DNA from: a bacterium
GTDB lineage: Bacteria > Patescibacteriota > Minisyncoccia > Phycocordibacterales > JBBTRF01
Length of the DNA: 64,000 nucleotides
Reading direction: 5' to 3'
Assembly: GCA_037130265.1 (NCBI GenBank)
Contig: JBAXTI010000001.1
Coordinates: 325,765 to 389,764 of the forward strand
Shown: in pieces, positions 42,656 to 56,068 of the stretch
Position numbering within the stretch: the first letter of the stretch is position 1
Layout of the letters: each line of letters opens with the position of its first letter
Position numbers and translations under genes: made by a program
Notes under the pieces: generated by a model
The model's input: only the letters and a program-made list of their open reading frames with translations
Databases searched by the model: none
Told to the model about the DNA's origin: nothing

Positions 42656-44680
42656 ATGAAAAAAAGCATTTCCTGGCTTCTTGCAATTGCTCTGTCTTTG
42701 GTCATCGTGTTTTTATGGAGAACAAGTACTCCAGCTGCCGTCGAGGCTCAAACTCTCTCAACTCCGTCAGTCCTCGCTGGCCATGCCTGGTCGTCCAATA
42801 TTGGTTGGGTGAGTTTCAATGGATCAAATGATTCGGGAGGCGGAAGTTCTCATGCGGTAAACAGAGACGCTGCCGGTAATCTCACTGGCTACGCGTGGTC
42901 TTCCAATATTGGTTGGATCAAATTTGGTGGCTTGGACACCGCAACAATACCGACAGTCTCTGCAGCACCTGGTACGCAGCAAATAAATGCGAAAGTGGAC
43001 ACCTCAACCGGACGACTCATCGGCTGGGCTCGGGCGTGTGCGGGGATGAGTGATCCGGTGGGGTGTACGGATGCAGTTCAATCTACTCAGGTCACCGCGG
43101 GAACGAATGGTTTGTCGACATCGTCATCACAAATAATTTTGAATTGGCAGATTGGACTTTTTGAACAGCAGGTTTATGTCACGAATAATACGTCTACCAC
43201 CTTACCCGGACTCCGTATTACATTGGAATCATCACTTCCTTCTGGCACAACTCTTTACTTTGCAAATACTGATAGTAACGGCAAATTTTATTTACAGCAT
43301 AACTATCCCATCTCTCCCGGTCAGACGGTACATATTGTAGCTGAATATTTGAACTTGCTTAGAAATATGCCCCAGACACCTTTGAATTTTTCTGCACAGG
43401 CATTAAATCAAGCCATTTTAGAACCCGTTTTGCCAGTAGGTAGTACTTTGATTAATACAATTCCTTCAAGCTCCATTTTATATCCCAATAACGCTTGGAC
43501 CACCCTTCCACACAAGTTGATATTTTGGAGTACATCGAGTCTGCTATTAGGTGAAAAAATAGCAATACAGTATAGCGATGATAACGGGGTTACTTGGCCT
43601 ACTTATTTTGGTAAGGGGATGAGTATACATGTAATTGATGCACCGACGCCGAATGTGGTCGATTATGGTGCTCCCCATACCATGGTTCCACCTCCGGAAA
43701 ATCGAATGTATAAGGTCTATAAATTACCTGTGGATACTTATCCTGCAAGAGATGGGGGATCGACATATAATCCTAGTTTAACTACTTTATTGACACTTCC
43801 CTCTACTATCGACCCTCGCGGAGGCTGGCGCGGTTGGATTAGCTTGAGTAGCACTGCTGATTCTGGAAATTACGGCGTCCAGCTCGAATCTAACGGCCAA
43901 TATTCTGGATATGCATGGGGATCAGATGTCATCGGTTGGATGCAGTTTACCCCGACAGTGCCCGGTGGCGGGGGTGGTGGGCCAACCTGCCCCGGTGTCT
44001 GCGAAACCGCCAAAACACTTTCCCTCACCTGCGCCACACGTGTAGCCGAGAGCACGGCCGGAAGCTGGACATGGACCGCTACCATCTCGAGTGTCTTTAA
44101 GGGTACTGCCCCATATACATTCAGCTGGATACCTCCGGGTGGCACAACCTCGACACAACAGCCTTTGTTCACTCCAACCACAGGTGCACCTATCAGCGCT
44201 TCTTTCACCACTCCCGCAACCTCTGAACAATTCCCAATGGTCTCGGTCGCAGATACACAAGGATACACCTCCCAACCCATCGCCTGTTCATCTGTTCCTG
44301 TACAGGTACTCCTACCTAGTGTTGAGTTCGGCGGAGTTGCAATTCCAAGTACCAATTCTTCCGAACCAACCACCCCATCTTCGTATCGAAACGCATTCAG
44401 TATGCAACGAGGAAAGGTGGTTGCGCTGAGATATGATGTCTCTGGCGGAAACACAGACGACACCTATCGCATTACGCAATCATTTCAGGGTGTAACAGGT
44501 GATTTGCTCCCAAGCACTGCTGTTCTTTCTGGGGTGCAAACCAAAAAAACCGCTGCACTCAACACAAACGGAGTCTATACCTACACCCTCAAGATCTTCT
44601 CGAAGGATGCCGTTAATCCTAAGACCACTTCGGTAGTCACCGTCACAGTTCGCAATGACCCAGACCTCAATGAATTCTAG
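42656..44680 (+). CDS. Large secreted/cell-surface protein with G(Y/H)AWSSNIGW(I/V) repeats
   Basis: Signal anchor MKKSISWLLAIALSLVIVFLW, three copies of the GxAWSSNIGW motif, a Gly6 run, a Cys-containing segment and Thr/Ser/Pro-rich regions. No enzymatic domain is recognised. Confidence 0.5.
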   Translation: MKKSISWLLAIALSLVIVFLWRTSTPAAVEAQTLSTPSVLAGHAWSSNIGWVSFNGSNDSGGGSSHAVNRDAAGNLTGYAWSSNIGWIKFGGLDTATIPTVSAAPGTQQINAKVDTSTGRLIGWARACAGMSDPVGCTDAVQSTQVTAGTNGLSTSSSQIILNWQIGLFEQQVYVTNNTSTTLPGLRITLESSLPSGTTLYFANTDSNGKFYLQHNYPISPGQTVHIVAEYLNLLRNMPQTPLNFSAQALNQAILEPVLPVGSTLINTIPSSSILYPNNAWTTLPHKLIFWSTSSLLLGEKIAIQYSDDNGVTWPTYFGKGMSIHVIDAPTPNVVDYGAPHTMVPPPENRMYKVYKLPVDTYPARDGGSTYNPSLTTLLTLPSTIDPRGGWRGWISLSSTADSGNYGVQLESNGQYSGYAWGSDVIGWMQFTPTVPGGGGGGPTCPGVCETAKTLSLTCATRVAESTAGSWTWTATISSVFKGTAPYTFSWIPPGGTTSTQQPLFTPTTGAPISASFTTPATSEQFPMVSVADTQGYTSQPIACSSVPVQVLLPSVEFGGVAIPSTNSSEPTTPSSYRNAFSMQRGKVVALRYDVSGGNTDDTYRITQSFQGVTGDLLPSTAVLSGVQTKKTAALNTNGVYTYTLKIFSKDAVNPKTTSVVTVTVRNDPDLNEF

Positions 44681-48003: not shown

Positions 48004-48038
48004 AAAAAGCCGCGCCATTTCGTTTGGTGCGGCTTTTT
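48004..48038 (+). terminator. Rho-independent (A/T-tract) terminator
   Basis: Hairpin AAAAAGCCGCGCCA-TTTCGTT-TGGTGCGGCTTTTT. Confidence 0.5.
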
Positions 48039-48040
48039 GG

Positions 48041-48046
48041 TATAAT
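48041..48046 (+). promoter_or_regulatory. Extended -10 box (TGGTATAAT) for trpS
   Basis: TATAAT ends 6 nt before the trpS ATG at 48053 with no Shine-Dalgarno, so a leaderless mRNA is likely. Confidence 0.35.
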
Positions 48047-50977: not shown

Positions 50978-51039
50978 TCCTACGTCTCCTTCGTCAATTC
51001 ACCCCCCCGCTGTCCCCACCACCTCACCAAATACAGTGA

Positions 51040-51045
51040 TATAAT
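51040..51045 (+). promoter_or_regulatory. Extended -10 box (TGATATAAT) for the giant surface-protein gene
   Basis: Sits in the 100-nt spacer upstream of 51080/51113. Confidence 0.3.
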
Positions 51046-51079
51046 TTGCGGTATATGAGAGATTCTCGTCCAGCACGAT

Positions 51080-54000
51080 TTGCTGTTTTGTGCCATTTCT
51101 CTGGCACCTTCCATGCTTGATATTCTCAACACAATTGGGGCCGCCATCATCACCGCTTTCTCTAGCATCGCCCTATTGTTTTCCGCCTCCACAGCACCAG
51201 CTGCAGTAGTGGTCTCCCAGCAGGGAACCACCGCATCTTCTGTTTCCTCGTCCACCCTCGCCGTCACCACCGACTCGGGTACCGCCTCCACCACCGTTTT
51301 TAACACATACATCACGCAGCCCGTCATCGAACGCATTGTCGAGCGAGCAGGGGAGACTGCGGCCACCTCTGGCGACTCCTCCACCTTCGTCACCCAACAA
51401 GAATTCACCCAGAAGCTCAACACCCTCTCTGCCACCCTCGGCCGCTCCCTGTATGGCAACTCATACCCAGCACCAAGCACCAACTACGGTGGTGGTGGTG
51501 TGCAGAACATGATCTCGTTGTCCAACAAGATTGATCAACTCACCAACACCGTCATCACCACGCCCACCATCACCGGTGCCACCATCAATGGCGGTACCAT
51601 CTCTGCCACCACTGCTGCCTTCTCTGGTGACGCCACCCTCTCCTCCACCACCGCCTCCTCCCTCACCGTCACCGGCCTATCATCTTTCGCAGGTCTCACC
51701 ACCCTCGGATACGCCTCCACCACCCAAATCGGCTCAACTGGCTCGGCATACTTTGCCACCAGTGGCGGCTCAGTGGGTATCGGCACCACCTCTCCCTCAG
51801 ACCTCCTTGCAGTGAATGGTGCGGTATACCTGGCCGCCACCACCCCTGCTGTCACTTCCAACCGCCTGTACAACAGCTCAGGTGATCTATACTGGGGAGG
51901 CAACCTCGTGTCAGGCGCTGCTGTCGGCACCTGGACATCGACTTCAGGCAATGTATATCGTCCGACGGGGAATGTGGGGATCGGTACTACCTCTCCATGG
52001 CGTGCACTTTCCGTGAACGGTTCCTCTGACCTTGGCAACAATGCTTTGGCAGGATCCTTCACCTCTACGACCACAACAGCTACCTCTACGTTTGCCGGAG
52101 GTTTCTCTGCCGCGAGCTCTACTTTCAACATCTTGAATCACAATGGGTATGTGGGGATTGGGACGACTACTCCAAAAAGAATGTTGCATCTTTCTAGTGT
52201 TACCTCAGCCACGGATCAGATGATTCGTGCTGAAAGTTCTGTTTCAACTAACGGTGCAACTATTCTGACCATGAATGATGTTGGCGATATATTTCAATTC
52301 GTAATGAATGGTTCAAATATTGGGAACGGATTTGTTTCAACAACAAACAACGCAGCCAGATTGCAATCTACAGGTGCTGGTGGAATGATTCTTAATACCA
52401 CTAACGCTAGTGCACCTATTGTTTTTGGAACAGGAGGCGTTGCGCTTGCAAATGAAAGGATGAGGCTCACAAGTACTGGTAATCTTGGTATCGGTACGTC
52501 CACTCCCGGCCAGAAACTTTCGGTGGCGGGGGACATTTTGGGGAACAATATTATCGGCTCGTATTTCACGGCGACTTCGACGATCGCATCTTCGACTCTT
52601 TCTACCGGAGGGCTCGCAATCGGCACGTCGCAGTTTGTGGTACAGCAGAATAGTGGGCGAGTGGGCATTGGTATCGCAAATCCAACCGAGAAACTGCACG
52701 TAACTGGCTTGAGGACAAACAATTCTGCCAGAATTCTTGTTACTGATGAAAATGGGGCGATAGCTCGACTGAATGCAGATGGGTATAACAACGGCACTGA
52801 TGCTGCTGCCAATCTTTTCTTGTCTGGAGATGGAAATCAGGGAATTAAAATGGTTTCCGGCGGGGTGTCCTCTTATATAACAGCAGGTTCAACAGGTGTG
52901 AGTATTACTGGTGCGGGAACGGGCTACGGCCTAACTCTTGCTGGGCCAACTAACACTCTCGGAGGAACGCTAAGTACCGACTCGAGCGGTTCGAGTGTTT
53001 GGGTGCCGCTCACAATTACTGCGAATGATAGCCAGGCAACAAACGTACTTTCAGTCGGCAAATCATCTTCAGCCGGTTCTTATTTATTGATGAATTCTTC
53101 GGGTAATCTTGGCATCGGCACCACCACCCCCGGCCAGAAGCTTTCGGTGGCGGGGGACATTTTGGGGAACAATATTATCGGCTCGTATTTCACGGCGACT
53201 TCGAGTACGGCGACTTCCACCTTCTTGGGCGGAGCGACCTTTGCGACTGGTGGGGGAAATGTGGGGATTGGGACGGCGACAACGGATGCACTACTTAGTG
53301 TGGTTAGTCCAAACAATGCGGTCGATACAATTTTATCAGTACGAACAAATAATTTATCGCAAGGTGTCGGGATTGGATACTCTTCAATAAGAGCGATTGG
53401 TTCAAGTGCAAACGTTGATTTGACAATAGCTGCCAAAGGATCAGGTACTGCGTATCTTGGTGATTCTGGAAACGGCTTTTTTGTGAGCCCGAGTGTTGCT
53501 GGAGCAAGTATAAGTACAAATGGTATAACCAGATTCAGTCTAATTGACGGTGTTGCAGCATTTGCGACGGATGGTTTCTCTATAACCGCAAACAGCGCAA
53601 CAGCCGCGACTATTATGGGCGGCAACGTCGGCATCGGAACAGCGAGTCCAGCTGACAAATTACAAGTAACAGGTGGAAATATTTTACTGGACGCTGGCGG
53701 TTCTATACAATTTGGTTCAACTGGTTTAAATAGCGTCGGTATTAAAGGTTATTGGGCTGGTTCCGGTAGCTACATGCACGTGTACTCAGTGGGGGATATT
53801 CGTAACTACTTGGATGCTAATAATAACTCCATTAACAATTTTGAAATCTATGGAAACGTAGCCGAAGGAACAACGGAGGGAGCCTTATTTACAGTTCAAG
53901 ATACAGGAAACGTCGGCATCGGCACCACCACCCCATACGCAAAACTTTCTCTTAGCGCCAACCACACCGGTACTCACAACCCAACACTCTTTGCTATCGC

Positions 54001-56068
54001 CTCAAGTACCGGTGGCACCTCAACCACCACCGCCTTTACGGTGTTGGCGAATGGAAATGTGGGCATCGGGACGTCGAGTCCGGCAGACAAGCTCGATGTG
54101 GCTGGATTTATAAAAACTGCGAAAATCCCTTTTGCAACCAATACTGCCTTAACAGCGGTAACAACAAGAGCCATGTCTTCTGTGGAATATAAAGGCAAGC
54201 TTTACGTTGGAACTTCAGATGGCAATGTGTATGTCTACGATGGATCAACATGGACATTTTCTTATAACAATGGATCGGGCCCAGTAATCGGGTTAGTGGT
54301 TTACAATGGAAATCTGTATGCAGCTTTTCAGAATGTGGGTGTAATTTCTTTTAATGGAAGTACTTGGGGCTCAGCCTTAGGGTCGCTGCCAACTTATATC
54401 TATCAAATGGCTGTTTATAATAGCAAGCTTTACGTGTCTATTTATGATGGTGGTGCAAGTCAAGTGAAGATGTATACCTTTGACGATACTTCTTGGGTTG
54501 AGTTGACAAATATTCCGTATTATCACAGCGCGGATCAGTATGGCATTAGAACCCTAGCTGTCTATAACGGGAAATTGTACGGTGGAAATGGTCTAGGAGA
54601 GGTATACGCTTTTGATGGTTCAAGCTGGGCACTCTTGACTGACTTAGGAGCATTTAGCATTACAACTTTTGGGACATACAAAGGGAAATTGTTTGCAAGT
54701 GGTGGTGGCAATGTGTATTCATTTGATGGAAGCACGTGGTCCTCATCTTTATACTCAACCGGATATCAGATAAACAGTTTTGTTGAATATGCTGGAAAGC
54801 TATATATTGGGGCTGCCAACGGAAATCCAGCTATTTATATGGTTTCCTACGACGGAAACTCGTTTACCGCAGAGACATCTGTGAATGCTTCGTTTACTGA
54901 TTATATAACTTCAGGTACGGTGTATAACGGAAAATTATATATGACAGGATCGTCGGCTCTAATGTATTCCGAACGTCTCGAATCGCAACTTGCGAAGGCG
55001 TATGATCCGACCCTAGTTCCATTCAATGAGCAGTATCAGAATTTCACCAAGAATCTTACCGTGACGGGCAACGTCGGCATCGGCACCACTTCTCCCGCCG
55101 CCCGCCTCTCCGTCACCCAATCCGCCAACACCAACGCCGGCGGCCTCTGGCTCGCCGGCACTGATGGCGACTATCGCGCCATCTACATGTCCGACACCAG
55201 CGGTACCCTCTCCTTCAACGGTGGAGACAATGCGGGCACCCTCAATACCGCGAGCCTCAACTCTGCCGGAGCCTGGATCAACGCTTCAGACCGCTCATAC
55301 AAGGAGAACATCGTTGATTTCTCCACCAAATACACCCTCGATGACATCATGAAGCTCGAACCTCGCTTCTACACCATGAAAGGCACCGGCAAGCCACAAA
55401 TCGGCTTCATCGCTCAAGAAGTGAAGCTGGTTATCCCTGAAGTGGTGGAAGGCGTGGACGGCTCCATGGGTGTCTCCTACGGCAACATGGTGGCCATTGC
55501 AATCCAGGGGATTAAGGAGTTGAATACGACCCTGCGCGAAGTGGGAACAAAGATCGCAGGGTTTGCGGATAAGATCATGTCAAGAGAAATCGTTGTTTCT
55601 GAAAGAATCTGCATCAACACCACCTGTGTCACTGAAGATCAGCTGAAATTACTCCTGAAAAATGCCGCTGCTCTCGCTTCAACTCCGGCTTCGACCCCGA
55701 CCCAAAGCTCGTCTGGCGATACCGCCACCACAACACTCGACACCACCGCCCCAGTCATTACACTCAATGGCAATAACCCTGCTCAAATAGAGAAGAATGC
55801 CAGCTATCTTGATCTCGGTGCGACCGTTACAGATAACGTGAGTCTGAACCTTGGCTATCTGACCACAGGTGACCAGATCGATACCACCGTCCCAGGGACT
55901 TACACCGTGACTTACACCGCCACCGACGTTGCCGGCAACACGGCTACCGCTTCGCGCACGGTGATTGTCTCTGATCCTGCGGCGCCAGCGCCCGTTGACC
56001 CTGCACCCACCGAGAGTGCCCCAGCTCCAGTCGACCCTGCACCAACACCCATTGAAGTAGCACCGTAG
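51080..56068 (+). CDS. Giant (1662 aa) surface protein: fibre-like Gly/Thr/Ser repeats, beta-propeller, Peptidase_S74 intramolecular-chaperone domain, Ig-like domain and Pro-rich tail
   Basis: N-terminal TM/signal anchor (the start may be the ATG at 51113). More than ten G(N/Y)VGIGTTSP(x)KL(S/H)V motifs. A YNGKLY/FDGS(S/T)W repeat set forms a ~6-7-blade propeller. S74 motif SDRSYKENIV...GFIAQEV...PEVV...IQGIKEL. Ig-like segment GTYTVTYTATDVAGNTATASRTVIV. Tail PAAPAPVDPAPTESAPAPVDPAPT. Confidence 0.6.
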   Translation: MLFCAISLAPSMLDILNTIGAAIITAFSSIALLFSASTAPAAVVVSQQGTTASSVSSSTLAVTTDSGTASTTVFNTYITQPVIERIVERAGETAATSGDSSTFVTQQEFTQKLNTLSATLGRSLYGNSYPAPSTNYGGGGVQNMISLSNKIDQLTNTVITTPTITGATINGGTISATTAAFSGDATLSSTTASSLTVTGLSSFAGLTTLGYASTTQIGSTGSAYFATSGGSVGIGTTSPSDLLAVNGAVYLAATTPAVTSNRLYNSSGDLYWGGNLVSGAAVGTWTSTSGNVYRPTGNVGIGTTSPWRALSVNGSSDLGNNALAGSFTSTTTTATSTFAGGFSAASSTFNILNHNGYVGIGTTTPKRMLHLSSVTSATDQMIRAESSVSTNGATILTMNDVGDIFQFVMNGSNIGNGFVSTTNNAARLQSTGAGGMILNTTNASAPIVFGTGGVALANERMRLTSTGNLGIGTSTPGQKLSVAGDILGNNIIGSYFTATSTIASSTLSTGGLAIGTSQFVVQQNSGRVGIGIANPTEKLHVTGLRTNNSARILVTDENGAIARLNADGYNNGTDAAANLFLSGDGNQGIKMVSGGVSSYITAGSTGVSITGAGTGYGLTLAGPTNTLGGTLSTDSSGSSVWVPLTITANDSQATNVLSVGKSSSAGSYLLMNSSGNLGIGTTTPGQKLSVAGDILGNNIIGSYFTATSSTATSTFLGGATFATGGGNVGIGTATTDALLSVVSPNNAVDTILSVRTNNLSQGVGIGYSSIRAIGSSANVDLTIAAKGSGTAYLGDSGNGFFVSPSVAGASISTNGITRFSLIDGVAAFATDGFSITANSATAATIMGGNVGIGTASPADKLQVTGGNILLDAGGSIQFGSTGLNSVGIKGYWAGSGSYMHVYSVGDIRNYLDANNNSINNFEIYGNVAEGTTEGALFTVQDTGNVGIGTTTPYAKLSLSANHTGTHNPTLFAIASSTGGTSTTTAFTVLANGNVGIGTSSPADKLDVAGFIKTAKIPFATNTALTAVTTRAMSSVEYKGKLYVGTSDGNVYVYDGSTWTFSYNNGSGPVIGLVVYNGNLYAAFQNVGVISFNGSTWGSALGSLPTYIYQMAVYNSKLYVSIYDGGASQVKMYTFDDTSWVELTNIPYYHSADQYGIRTLAVYNGKLYGGNGLGEVYAFDGSSWALLTDLGAFSITTFGTYKGKLFASGGGNVYSFDGSTWSSSLYSTGYQINSFVEYAGKLYIGAANGNPAIYMVSYDGNSFTAETSVNASFTDYITSGTVYNGKLYMTGSSALMYSERLESQLAKAYDPTLVPFNEQYQNFTKNLTVTGNVGIGTTSPAARLSVTQSANTNAGGLWLAGTDGDYRAIYMSDTSGTLSFNGGDNAGTLNTASLNSAGAWINASDRSYKENIVDFSTKYTLDDIMKLEPRFYTMKGTGKPQIGFIAQEVKLVIPEVVEGVDGSMGVSYGNMVAIAIQGIKELNTTLREVGTKIAGFADKIMSREIVVSERICINTTCVTEDQLKLLLKNAAALASTPASTPTQSSSGDTATTTLDTTAPVITLNGNNPAQIEKNASYLDLGATVTDNVSLNLGYLTTGDQIDTTVPGTYTVTYTATDVAGNTATASRTVIVSDPAAPAPVDPAPTESAPAPVDPAPTPIEVAP
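52478..52580. repeat. Internal direct repeat copy 1 (~100 bp; encodes GNLGIGTSTPGQKLSVAGDILGNNIIGSYFTATS)
   Basis: Near-identical at the nucleotide level to 53102..53205, inside the giant gene. Confidence 0.7.
53102..53205. repeat. Internal direct repeat copy 2 (~100 bp)
   Basis: About 95% identical to 52478..52580 and in the same reading frame. Confidence 0.7.

Follow-up and report, generated by a model that had tools for sequence, protein, structure and literature searches.

In endosialidase and T5 pb1, S74 chaperone domains trimerise, template a triple β-helix and then cleave themselves off, and the order of parts in endoNF is propeller, short triple-β-helix segment and S74. Together with the S74 phage tail fibres, the S74 subgroup of the Bdellovibrio bacteriovorus MAT fibres, with Bd3182 and the shaft structures of Bd2133 and Bd1334, comprises the closest characterised relatives of the protein described here. 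The MAT fibres and the biochemistry of their S74 domain were defined by Caulton et al. 2024 (PMC10769870), where TNF-like, C-type lectin, β-sandwich, FGE, collagen-like and invasin tips are reported, the N-terminus is assigned as the attached end of both MAT and phage fibres, and no Patescibacteria are listed. We have analysed a 64,000-nt stretch of the patescibacterial contig JBAXTI010000001.1 (positions 325,765 to 389,764; assembly GCA_037130265.1), hereafter the window, and focus on a gene at 51080..56068 that encodes a modular protein of 1662 residues. All features of this gene lie on the + strand, and residue numbers follow the 1662-residue frame that begins at a TTG codon. Judged from their sequences, such proteins of Patescibacteria are homologous to the prey-recognition MAT fibres of Bdellovibrio and to S74-matured phage fibres, and form a very large tip-swapping family. 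By analogy with these systems, we consider it on balance probable that the product of this chromosomal gene is a homotrimeric fibre of the phage tail-fibre and MAT kind, displayed on the cell surface, that serves in attachment to a partner cell.

The means by which ultra-small Patescibacteria locate and hold on to partner cells are poorly understood, and earlier work has dealt with type IV pili and, recently, Pam pili. A 2026 preprint on the Pam pilus operon of the candidate phyla radiation mentions in passing an adjoining, uncharacterised "tail fibre-like protein" (bioRxiv 10.64898/2026.03.03.709456). Our literature search returned no paper that ties Patescibacteria to S74 or MAT fibres. The family is annotated in databases yet unstudied; the gap lies in the literature, not in the sequence record. 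As such, the family offers testable candidates for host-range determinants.

Fibre shaft and N-terminal region

The fibre shaft (51767..54109, residues 230–1010) consists of ten capping-loop repeats of the form GxVGIGTxxPxxxL[SH]V with β-rich bodies of 50–150 residues between them, and 115 of 120 relatives have matches to it. Over the entire protein, the motif G-x-[VL]-G-[IL]-G is found in 11 copies within residues 230–1330, each of which continues T-x-x-P-x-x-x-L-[SHQDA]-[VL], compared with a mean of 0.058 and a maximum of 1 copy in 2000 protein shuffles. More than ten fibre-type repeats with an L(S/H)V extension had been claimed in a first-pass annotation of the window, and this count holds. 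Tail-fibre families in PHROGs match the protein, the best being phrog_9942 ("tail fiber protein"; 2.9e-18 on residues 354–510). In a single-sequence search of the PDB, the only significant match to the shaft is the Bd2133 β-helix (8OND; E = 4.5e-5). A profile of the C-terminal region, which contains one fibre repeat, retrieves the same entry through that repeat at 1.3e-8, followed by 8OJN, 8ONB and 8ONC at 9e-6, and 8OL4 and 8ONF at 2e-4. By these sequence comparisons, the fibre repeats are homologous to the crystallised β-helix capping loops of the Bdellovibrio MAT fibres.

The longest internal repeat of the gene is a duplication of 119 nt (52478-52596 and 53102-53220; 89% identity, with a longest exact tract of 64 nt) that encodes GNLGIGT(S/T)TPGQKLSVAGDILGNNIIGSYFTATS. 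Both copies form islands of high G+C content at third codon positions (GC3) amid shaft bodies of low GC3. Their 13 mismatches are of mixed types, and A-biased mutation of the kind associated with diversity-generating retroelements was rejected. The same peptide occurs twice in P0047, a paralogue in the same metagenome-assembled genome (MAG), but the DNA identity is only 72–74% over ~130 nt, for which reason recent gene conversion between the window gene and P0047 was also rejected.

A single hydrophobic segment, ILNTIGAAIITAFSSIALLFSAS (51122..51190, residues 15–37), is located at the N-terminus; it has no basic n-region and may act as a signal-anchor or as a signal peptide of atypical form. 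Kyte–Doolittle averages over 19-residue windows exceed 1.6 only within residues 1–27. The transmembrane or signal segment predicted at the outset is thus present and is the sole one in the protein, which makes this stretch of 19–23 hydrophobic residues the only candidate anchor of the fibre. Its motif is common to P0008 and P0119. A spacer rich in Ser, Thr and Ala follows (51191..51304, residues 38–75), read directly from the sequence and variable in the family alignment, and leads to a family-specific stalk-base module (51308..51610, residues 77–177) that contains QPVIERIVER, a heptad-like helix, SNKIDQL and PTITGATINGG. The module recurs in ~20 of 119 relatives and has no match in Pfam. Used by itself as a database query, it retrieved a single weak match, and it was characterised from the relatives already collected.

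S74 domain and C-terminal region

Downstream of the propeller described below, a connector (EQYQNFTKN), the 11th fibre repeat and a pre-cleavage segment (together 55010..55285, residues 1311–1402) are 59–77% identical to relatives. In a monomeric AlphaFold2 model this segment has a predicted local distance difference test score (pLDDT) of ~40, which is expected of an obligate trimer, yet is no evidence for one. The Peptidase_S74 chaperone and autoprotease domain comes next (55286..55669, residues 1403–1530). It is recognised as Pfam PF13884 over residues 1403–1456 with 40.5 bits (cutoff 22), and the motif SDRSYK at its start holds the predicted catalytic dyad, Ser1403 (55286-55288) and Lys1408 (55301-55303). 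Both residues are invariant in 22 aligned C-termini of the family. Against the PDB, the C-terminal profile matches the phage tail fibres 8JOV (5e-16) and 6F45 (3.9e-13), the transcription factor MyRF (7DC3; 1.5e-11) and the GA-1 neck appendage protein (3GUD; 0.005). AlphaFold2 modelling of residues 1311–1662 assigns pLDDT values of 88–96 to the S74 domain and 84–96 to the immunoglobulin-like (Ig) domain that follows it. With the S74 part as query, Foldseek returned the ICA domain of MyRF (7DC3; root-mean-square deviation 2.7 Å over 120 columns, TMt 0.62). The Peptidase_S74 domain assigned by the first-pass annotation is therefore well founded, with a Pfam score above cutoff, an intact dyad and the fold of a solved ICA domain.

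The S74 domain is not located at the extreme C-terminus, but is followed by 132 residues. They comprise a Thr/Ser/Pro-rich linker (55670..55738, residues 1531–1553), which is visible in the sequence as claimed and has low pLDDT; an Ig domain of the family Bact_surface_Ig-like, PF16403, formerly DUF5011 (55739..55969, residues 1554–1630); and a Pro/Ala-rich tail (55970..56065, residues 1631–1662), likewise readable from the sequence as stated beforehand and devoid of any hydrophobic window. The Ig domain had been described as DUF5011 or HYR type. The first assignment is correct (53.5 bits against a cutoff of 27, residues 1560–1630, covering profile positions 1–71 of 71), whereas the HYR family gives a weak overlapping match below threshold (16.6 bits, cutoff 21.7). 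Foldseek matches to the Ig part include BT2262, the Big_3 domain 2KPN, SraP, SlpX and InlK, and SbsB is also found among the Ig matches. Since the Ig domain and the Pro/Ala-rich tail are located past the cleavage serine of the S74 domain, they are predicted to be removed from the mature fibre rather than to decorate it. Pfam and hydrophobicity analysis detected no LPXTG motif, known wall-binding domain or C-terminal hydrophobic segment in the protein.

Propeller

Between the 10th and 11th fibre repeats, a seven-bladed β-propeller of the Kelch type is inserted (54125..55009, residues 1016–1310). The blade motif Y-x-[GS]-[KN]-L-[YF] occurs seven times within residues 1037–1282 (mean 0.0075 and maximum 1 in 2000 shuffles). 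The region has no Pfam match, and no Kelch family is reported even at E ≤ 1. With an alignment of 47 homologues, AlphaFold2 modelled residues 1010–1320 as an all-β monomer (pLDDT 84.5, pTM 0.85) in which 27 strands make up seven four-stranded blades. The profile of this alignment retrieves Kelch propellers from the PDB, with a best E value of 2.8e-24, and Foldseek relates the model to BamB, WD40, Ycf48 and designed propellers at TM-scores of 0.6–0.67. A propeller of six or seven blades had been anticipated, and seven are modelled. The most likely role suggested by the model is that of a putative ligand-binding tip module, of which a trimer would carry three.

An exhaustive HMMER search showed propellers of this type to be common (1079 cluster representatives at E ≤ 1e-3), often in giant proteins with several propellers; some stand-alone homologues carry Kelch or DUF5122 matches. 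Among the best 143 propeller representatives, fibre motifs are combined with a propeller only in P0001, P0108, P0255 and P0315, and P0255 unites propeller, fibre and S74. Viral structure models include propeller proteins at TM-scores of ~0.7, one of which is annotated with an intramolecular chaperone domain (0.72). In P0108 (1372 residues, from a Logan assembly), residues 930–1320 form a cassette of GNVGIGTTSP, propeller, FGEQYQNFTKN and GNLGVGT, arranged as in the window protein. P0108 has a classical signal peptide and a C-terminus without S74, and is as such an "NS74"-type counterpart of the window protein.

Family relatives and module exchange

The exact protein is held by NCBI as [quoted passage not shown]. 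At least 1581 relatives were found, mostly under names of Parcubacteria and Paceibacterota lineages, and S74 (PF13884) and PF16403 occur together in 63 of the 120 best matches. Contrary to the initial statement that the domain combination was undescribed, the family is thus large and most of the combination common in it, and propeller, fibre and S74 are found together in P0255 and in a phage protein. By sequence, only the propeller tip is rare in the family. At full length, no orthologue exists among 5.8 billion proteins, the best non-self match having 19% coverage at 55% identity. The same MAG also encodes the paralogue P0047 (1659 residues), which has near-identical repeat peptides and the same C-terminus of S74, linker, Ig domain and Pro-rich tail, but no propeller.

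Segment-wise BLAST, in which each part of the fibre protein was compared with 119 relatives, shows how differently the parts are shared. The N-terminal module is related to 22 of them, the shaft to 114, the propeller to one (P0108), the last repeat to 30, the S74 domain to 65 and the Ig domain to 70. Among 37 relatives that bear an S74 domain, this domain is related in 98% of pairs and the tip (at least 150 residues) in 14%, and none has the tip of the window protein. Exchangeable tips on a conserved shaft, as in the MAT fibres, are thus a property of the family at the level of sequence. Relatives that share the S74 and Ig C-terminus (for example P0039, P0063, P0070, P0087, P0031 and P0007) add other modules, among them an intein, GDSL lipase, FG-GAP/VCBS, LVIVD, YadA head, LamG and peptidoglycan-binding modules, which amounts to a wide repertoire. 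A few relatives are labelled Methylocystis, Methanoregula or Actinomycetota, and may reflect contamination in binning.

Codon usage along the gene

GC3 averages 0.583 ± 0.052 in the genes of the window. The fibre gene has a mean of 0.50 and is strongly heterogeneous, with 0.69 in the N-terminal module, 0.45 in the shaft (alternating between ~0.25 and ~0.7), 0.36 in the propeller, 0.71 in the last repeat and S74, and 0.54 in the Ig domain. At fourfold-degenerate sites, the corresponding values along the gene are 0.68, 0.45, 0.36, 0.74 and 0.58, compared with 0.62 in seven flanking genes. The fourfold value of the propeller differs from that of the seven flanking genes (p = 1.5e-10) and from that of the S74 block (p = 2.3e-10). 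The same shift is evident for threonine, where ACC accounts for 34 of 42 Thr codons in the N-terminal module and for 6 of 28 in the propeller. Maximum-likelihood breakpoints are placed at residues 1006 and 1321, on the GNVGIGT repeats that flank the propeller (log-likelihood gain 35.7), and at least eight sharp switches in synonymous codon use are present in the gene. P0047 is uniform in codon usage, and the mosaic is thus confined to the window gene.

This codon mosaic is a new observation on the fibre gene. It is consistent with modules of different histories that would have been joined by cassette import or tip swapping. A rule by which high GC3 marks widely shared modules was rejected as not significant (Spearman 0.27, p = 0.12); only the extremes, the propeller and S74, fit it.

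Gene start, promoter and assembly

The frame is open for 1662 codons from the TTG at 51080, while the gene model in the database begins at ATG 51113 and comprises 1651 residues. It is the longest open reading frame of the window, as the first-pass annotation had it, and its product is rich in Thr (13.3%), Gly (12.5%), Ser (11.5%) and Ala (10.2%). A perfect extended −10 element, TGATATAAT, is found at 51037-51045, 68 nt upstream of ATG 51113. The extended −10 box ascribed to the gene is accordingly there, and the underlying motif TGNTATAAT is enriched in the window, with 6 sites observed, mostly just 5′ of genes, against 0.96 expected (none of 100 shuffles reaches 6). A sigma-70 scan that demands a −35 element did not report a promoter for the fibre gene, and the enrichment concerns the extended −10 element by itself. 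With its six-fold enrichment, TGNTATAAT may be the main promoter signal of the organism. Another extended −10 element, TGGTATAAT, lies at 48038-48046 (+) upstream of ATG 48053 of the tryptophanyl-tRNA synthetase (TrpRS) gene and ends 7 nt before the start codon, a position that suggests a leaderless mRNA; the TrpRS gene call in the European Nucleotide Archive (ENA) starts later, giving 311 instead of 336 residues. A terminator-like hairpin at 51071-51085 does not exceed chance expectation (3 found, 5.4 expected).

An interruption of the frame in raw reads, owing to a collapse of repeats, had been named beforehand as a point that would speak against the gene. In the assembly the frame is open over 4989 nt, and a collapse of repeats in the assembly is unlikely. 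ENA contig NODE_1 (368 kb, coverage 20; the contig of the window has 464 kb) carries an identical gene within 22,888 nt of identity, though it probably derives from the same reads.

Organism and neighbourhood

The best relatives of the adjacent class II aminoacyl-tRNA synthetase (aaRS) are only Patescibacteria of the Paceibacteria type, with matches to MAGs of Ca. Taylor-, Nomura- and Kaiserbacteria/Paceibacterota and a Ca. Taylorbacteria MAG at the top (81%). The organism is accordingly a Patescibacterium, in keeping with the reduced-genome host proposed initially. All neighbours are encoded on the + strand, with an acyltransferase, a methyltransferase, a histidine kinase, TrpRS and an ABC exporter (ABC_membrane and ABC_tran) upstream, and the aaRS, ScpA, ScpB, a PBP5-like DD-carboxypeptidase, FtsW and MurG downstream.

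In the closest relative, this Ca. Taylorbacteria MAG (L002), the genes for methyltransferase, histidine kinase, TrpRS, ABC exporter, aaRS, ScpA, ScpB and DD-carboxypeptidase are arranged in the same order without a fibre gene. The position of the latter is taken by a non-coding gap of 568 bp between ABC exporter and aaRS (L002 9418-9985), in which tblastn detected no fibre remnant. None of 80 related loci has a fibre gene at the syntenic site, and we therefore conclude that the gene is a lineage-specific insertion or has been lost elsewhere, and that its adjacency to the exporter is incidental. The exporter does precede the gene directly, as noted in the first-pass annotation, but the functional tie implied there was rejected since L002 keeps the adjacency of ABC exporter and aaRS in the absence of a fibre gene. 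No tRNA gene or other hallmark of integration was found in the window.

The paralogue P0047 is located on ENA NODE_94 of the same MAG (L082 6825-17207), where it is accompanied by a 173-residue unknown protein and a 618-residue protein with a CarboxypepD_reg domain. The three genes stand between rpsG (S7) and fusA (EF-G), and the insertion is thus inside the normally conserved str operon. Elsewhere in the window, a gene at 42656-44680 (+) encodes a 674-residue protein without a Pfam match that carries a classical signal peptide (MKKSISWLLAIALSLVIVFLW...). Its GC3 is the lowest of the window genes (0.43, compared with 0.58 ± 0.05), and it may represent another imported surface protein.

Proposed maturation and function

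The sequence lends good support to a trimeric surface fibre that processes itself. Of the trimeric fibre adhesin originally proposed, the trimeric fibre stands as the best reading, because the repeats match the MAT β-helix capping loops and the S74 dyad is intact and invariant; the adhesive part, in which the fibre would hold on to a partner cell, is plausible by analogy with MAT and phage receptor-binding proteins and from the usual lifestyle of the phylum (PMC11665869).

In the maturation pathway that we envisage, the N-terminal hydrophobic segment would direct export and probably keep the protein anchored in the membrane. Three S74 domains would then associate and, as do those of endosialidase, T5 pb1 and Bd3182, nucleate an interdigitated triple β-helix shaft in which, as homology indicates, the repeats serve as capping loops. 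The Ser1403–Lys1408 dyad, given its intact and invariant motif, is expected to cut before Ser1403 and free a fragment of 260 residues that runs from S74 through linker and Ig domain to the tail. What is left, the mature fibre, would span residues ~38–1402 and, by scaling from the Bd3182 model, measure some tens of nanometres. Because cleavage at Ser1403 removes the Ig domain and the tail, the propellers should be located near the distal end. A short β-helix stub (residues 1321–1402) would form this end, with the three Kelch propellers just behind it. The most plausible ligand, by analogy, is a surface structure of the partner or host cell. Finally, the family would diversify by module exchange between conserved repeats, in a gene where the codons of shaft bodies and propeller appear foreign to the genome and those of the N-terminal module and S74 block appear native.

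It is also conceivable, if rather doubtful, that the family constitutes a host-recognition repertoire of Patescibacteria which evolves in the manner of phage receptor-binding proteins. The repeats would in that case be recombination joints, at which the Kelch tip and shaft bodies from donors of lower GC were placed onto a native anchor and S74, with a switch in specificity as the outcome. In the same view, the part behind S74, with the Ig domain and tail, would be an extension of the chaperone peculiar to Patescibacteria, which might for instance help to handle the precursor in a monoderm wall.

Several observations weigh against a fibre dedicated to partner-cell attachment. A basic n-region, as would be expected in a signal peptide or type II anchor, is missing from the N-terminal segment. 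Unlike in phage and MAT proteins, the S74 domain is internal, and the Ig domain and tail that would be discarded along with it have no obvious purpose. Kelch propellers are generic interaction modules and as such uninformative on the ligand. Not all Patescibacteria are proven episymbionts, and the relation between GC3 and sharing within the family is not significant overall.

Alternative explanations

The protein could have the same structure and yet be a general fibre of the envelope or matrix, perhaps a spike associated with the S-layer or an adhesin for particles or biofilms, without specific host recognition. Both paralogues stand in strings of housekeeping genes, which suggests constitutive expression. 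The Kelch and Ig modules are generic, and the Ig matches include the S-layer proteins SlpX and SbsB. Some Parcubacteria may be free-living (PMC12625730). A structural part of the envelope, however, should be syntenic and conserved, whereas the window gene is missing from the same site in 80 relatives, has no full-length orthologue and belongs to a family with swapped tips, a pattern that is instead typical of receptor-binding proteins. We thus regard a general envelope fibre as unlikely, though worth keeping in mind; if generic adhesion is its only function, the gene would be no more than another member of a family that has been annotated before.

The internal S74 domain can also be read in terms of release. 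In MyRF, the part after the ICA domain holds the anchor, and cleavage frees the N-terminal trimer; in surface proteins of Gram-positive bacteria, Pro-rich segments span the wall. By analogy, the N-terminal segment of the window protein would be a cleaved signal peptide, the Ig domain and tail would hold the precursor in the wall, and the S74 cut would free a trimeric fibre to act as a soluble lectin, in a bacteriocin-like manner or after non-covalent rebinding. The match to 7DC3, the 132 residues after S74 and an AxA-like site (STAPA-A) after the hydrophobic segment fit such a scheme. Against it, the protein offers nothing that could retain the precursor, be it a hydrophobic segment at the C-terminus, an LPXTG motif or a known wall-binding domain, the N-terminal hydrophobic segment of 19–23 residues exceeds the typical h-region of a signal peptide, and MAT and phage fibres are attached by the N-terminus. 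Release is therefore improbable, and an N-terminally anchored fibre is preferred.

The PHROG matches, the S74 domain typical of phage fibres, the NCBI names ("tail fiber domain-containing protein") and the foreign codon usage of shaft and propeller might together point to a prophage tail fibre, or to one from a phage-derived particle such as a tailocin, an extracellular contractile injection system or a gene-transfer agent. The context is nevertheless cellular. Housekeeping genes are found on both sides, no phage, baseplate, sheath or integrase gene is present within 10 kb either side of the fibre gene, and the paralogue is inside the str operon between rpsG and fusA. In addition, virion fibres do not carry a hydrophobic export segment, and identity to phage proteins is only 25–36% over parts, which makes a particle-borne fibre very improbable.

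Equally remote is a depolymerase of the endosialidase or tailspike kind, in which the propeller would act as a glycosidase on a capsule or wall polymer of the host. The order of domains is as in K1F endosialidase, and the viral propeller protein with a chaperone domain (TM-score 0.72) would be compatible with this idea. The profile, however, matches Kelch interaction propellers (2.8e-24 to ~1e-9), with no sialidase or glycosidase among the 60 PDB sequences listed and no sialidase in the top 50 Foldseek matches, and the blades contain the Kelch-like Y-x-G-K-L-Y...DG-x-x-W rather than Asp-boxes. Finally, the metagenomic source, the sharp codon switches and the conservation of repeats at the DNA level could suggest a chimera of fibre genes from several genomes joined at conserved repeats, but the probability of such an artefact is close to nil, because the internal repeats are 60–89% identical with a longest exact tract of only 64 nt, both flanks belong to one genome and are syntenic with L002, and the second assembly is identical over 22.9 kb.

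Comparison with known systems

As for the MAT fibres, the fibre of the window is encoded on the chromosome of a bacterium that probably lives on other cells, and would combine a putative N-terminal export signal, a swappable tip and a C-terminal-region S74 domain with SDxxxK. The shaft is made from the same capping-loop repeat, which in Bd2133 takes the forms GNLGLGTAAPTSALHV and GNVGIGATAPTAKLEV. The differences relate to the host, a Patescibacterium of the monoderm type as compared with a Gram-negative predator, and to both ends of the protein. The N-terminal module (QPVIERIxER, helix, NKIDQL), which is shared among Patescibacteria, looks different from the conserved β-rich domain of ~130 residues that MAT fibres carry right behind their signal peptide, and the Ig domain and Pro/Ala-rich tail follow an S74 domain that is terminal in MAT fibres. 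None of the published MAT tips is a Kelch propeller.

Compared with phage fibres and tailspikes (K1F endosialidase, T5 pb1, the distal subunits of S16/T4-like long tail fibres and the GA-1 neck appendage), the S74 fold, the Ser–Lys dyad and a triple β-helix segment just before the cleavage site are held in common, and the position of the propeller ahead of the stalk recalls endosialidase. Unlike in these proteins, the gene is located outside any virion cluster, an export segment is present, S74 is not terminal and the propeller is of the Kelch type rather than a sialidase, with low identity over parts of the sequence. MyRF provides the best structural match to the S74 part in its ICA domain, which is internal in both proteins, but it is a eukaryotic membrane-bound transcription factor that has no fibre shaft, and a transmembrane helix and a lumenal domain, not an Ig domain, follow the ICA domain.

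The propeller itself resembles those of KLHL20/22, Keap1 and IVNS1ABP in blade motif, profile similarity and four-stranded blades. It differs in having seven blades instead of the usual six, in the lack of a Pfam Kelch match and in being embedded in a fibre rather than linked to BTB/BACK domains. The protein's own family in Patescibacteria, which carries the automatic NCBI names "tail fiber domain-containing" and "DUF5011 domain-containing", is uncharacterised; set against these systems, the window gene stands out by its Kelch-propeller tip, its internal S74 domain and a codon usage that bears a clear signature of module import.

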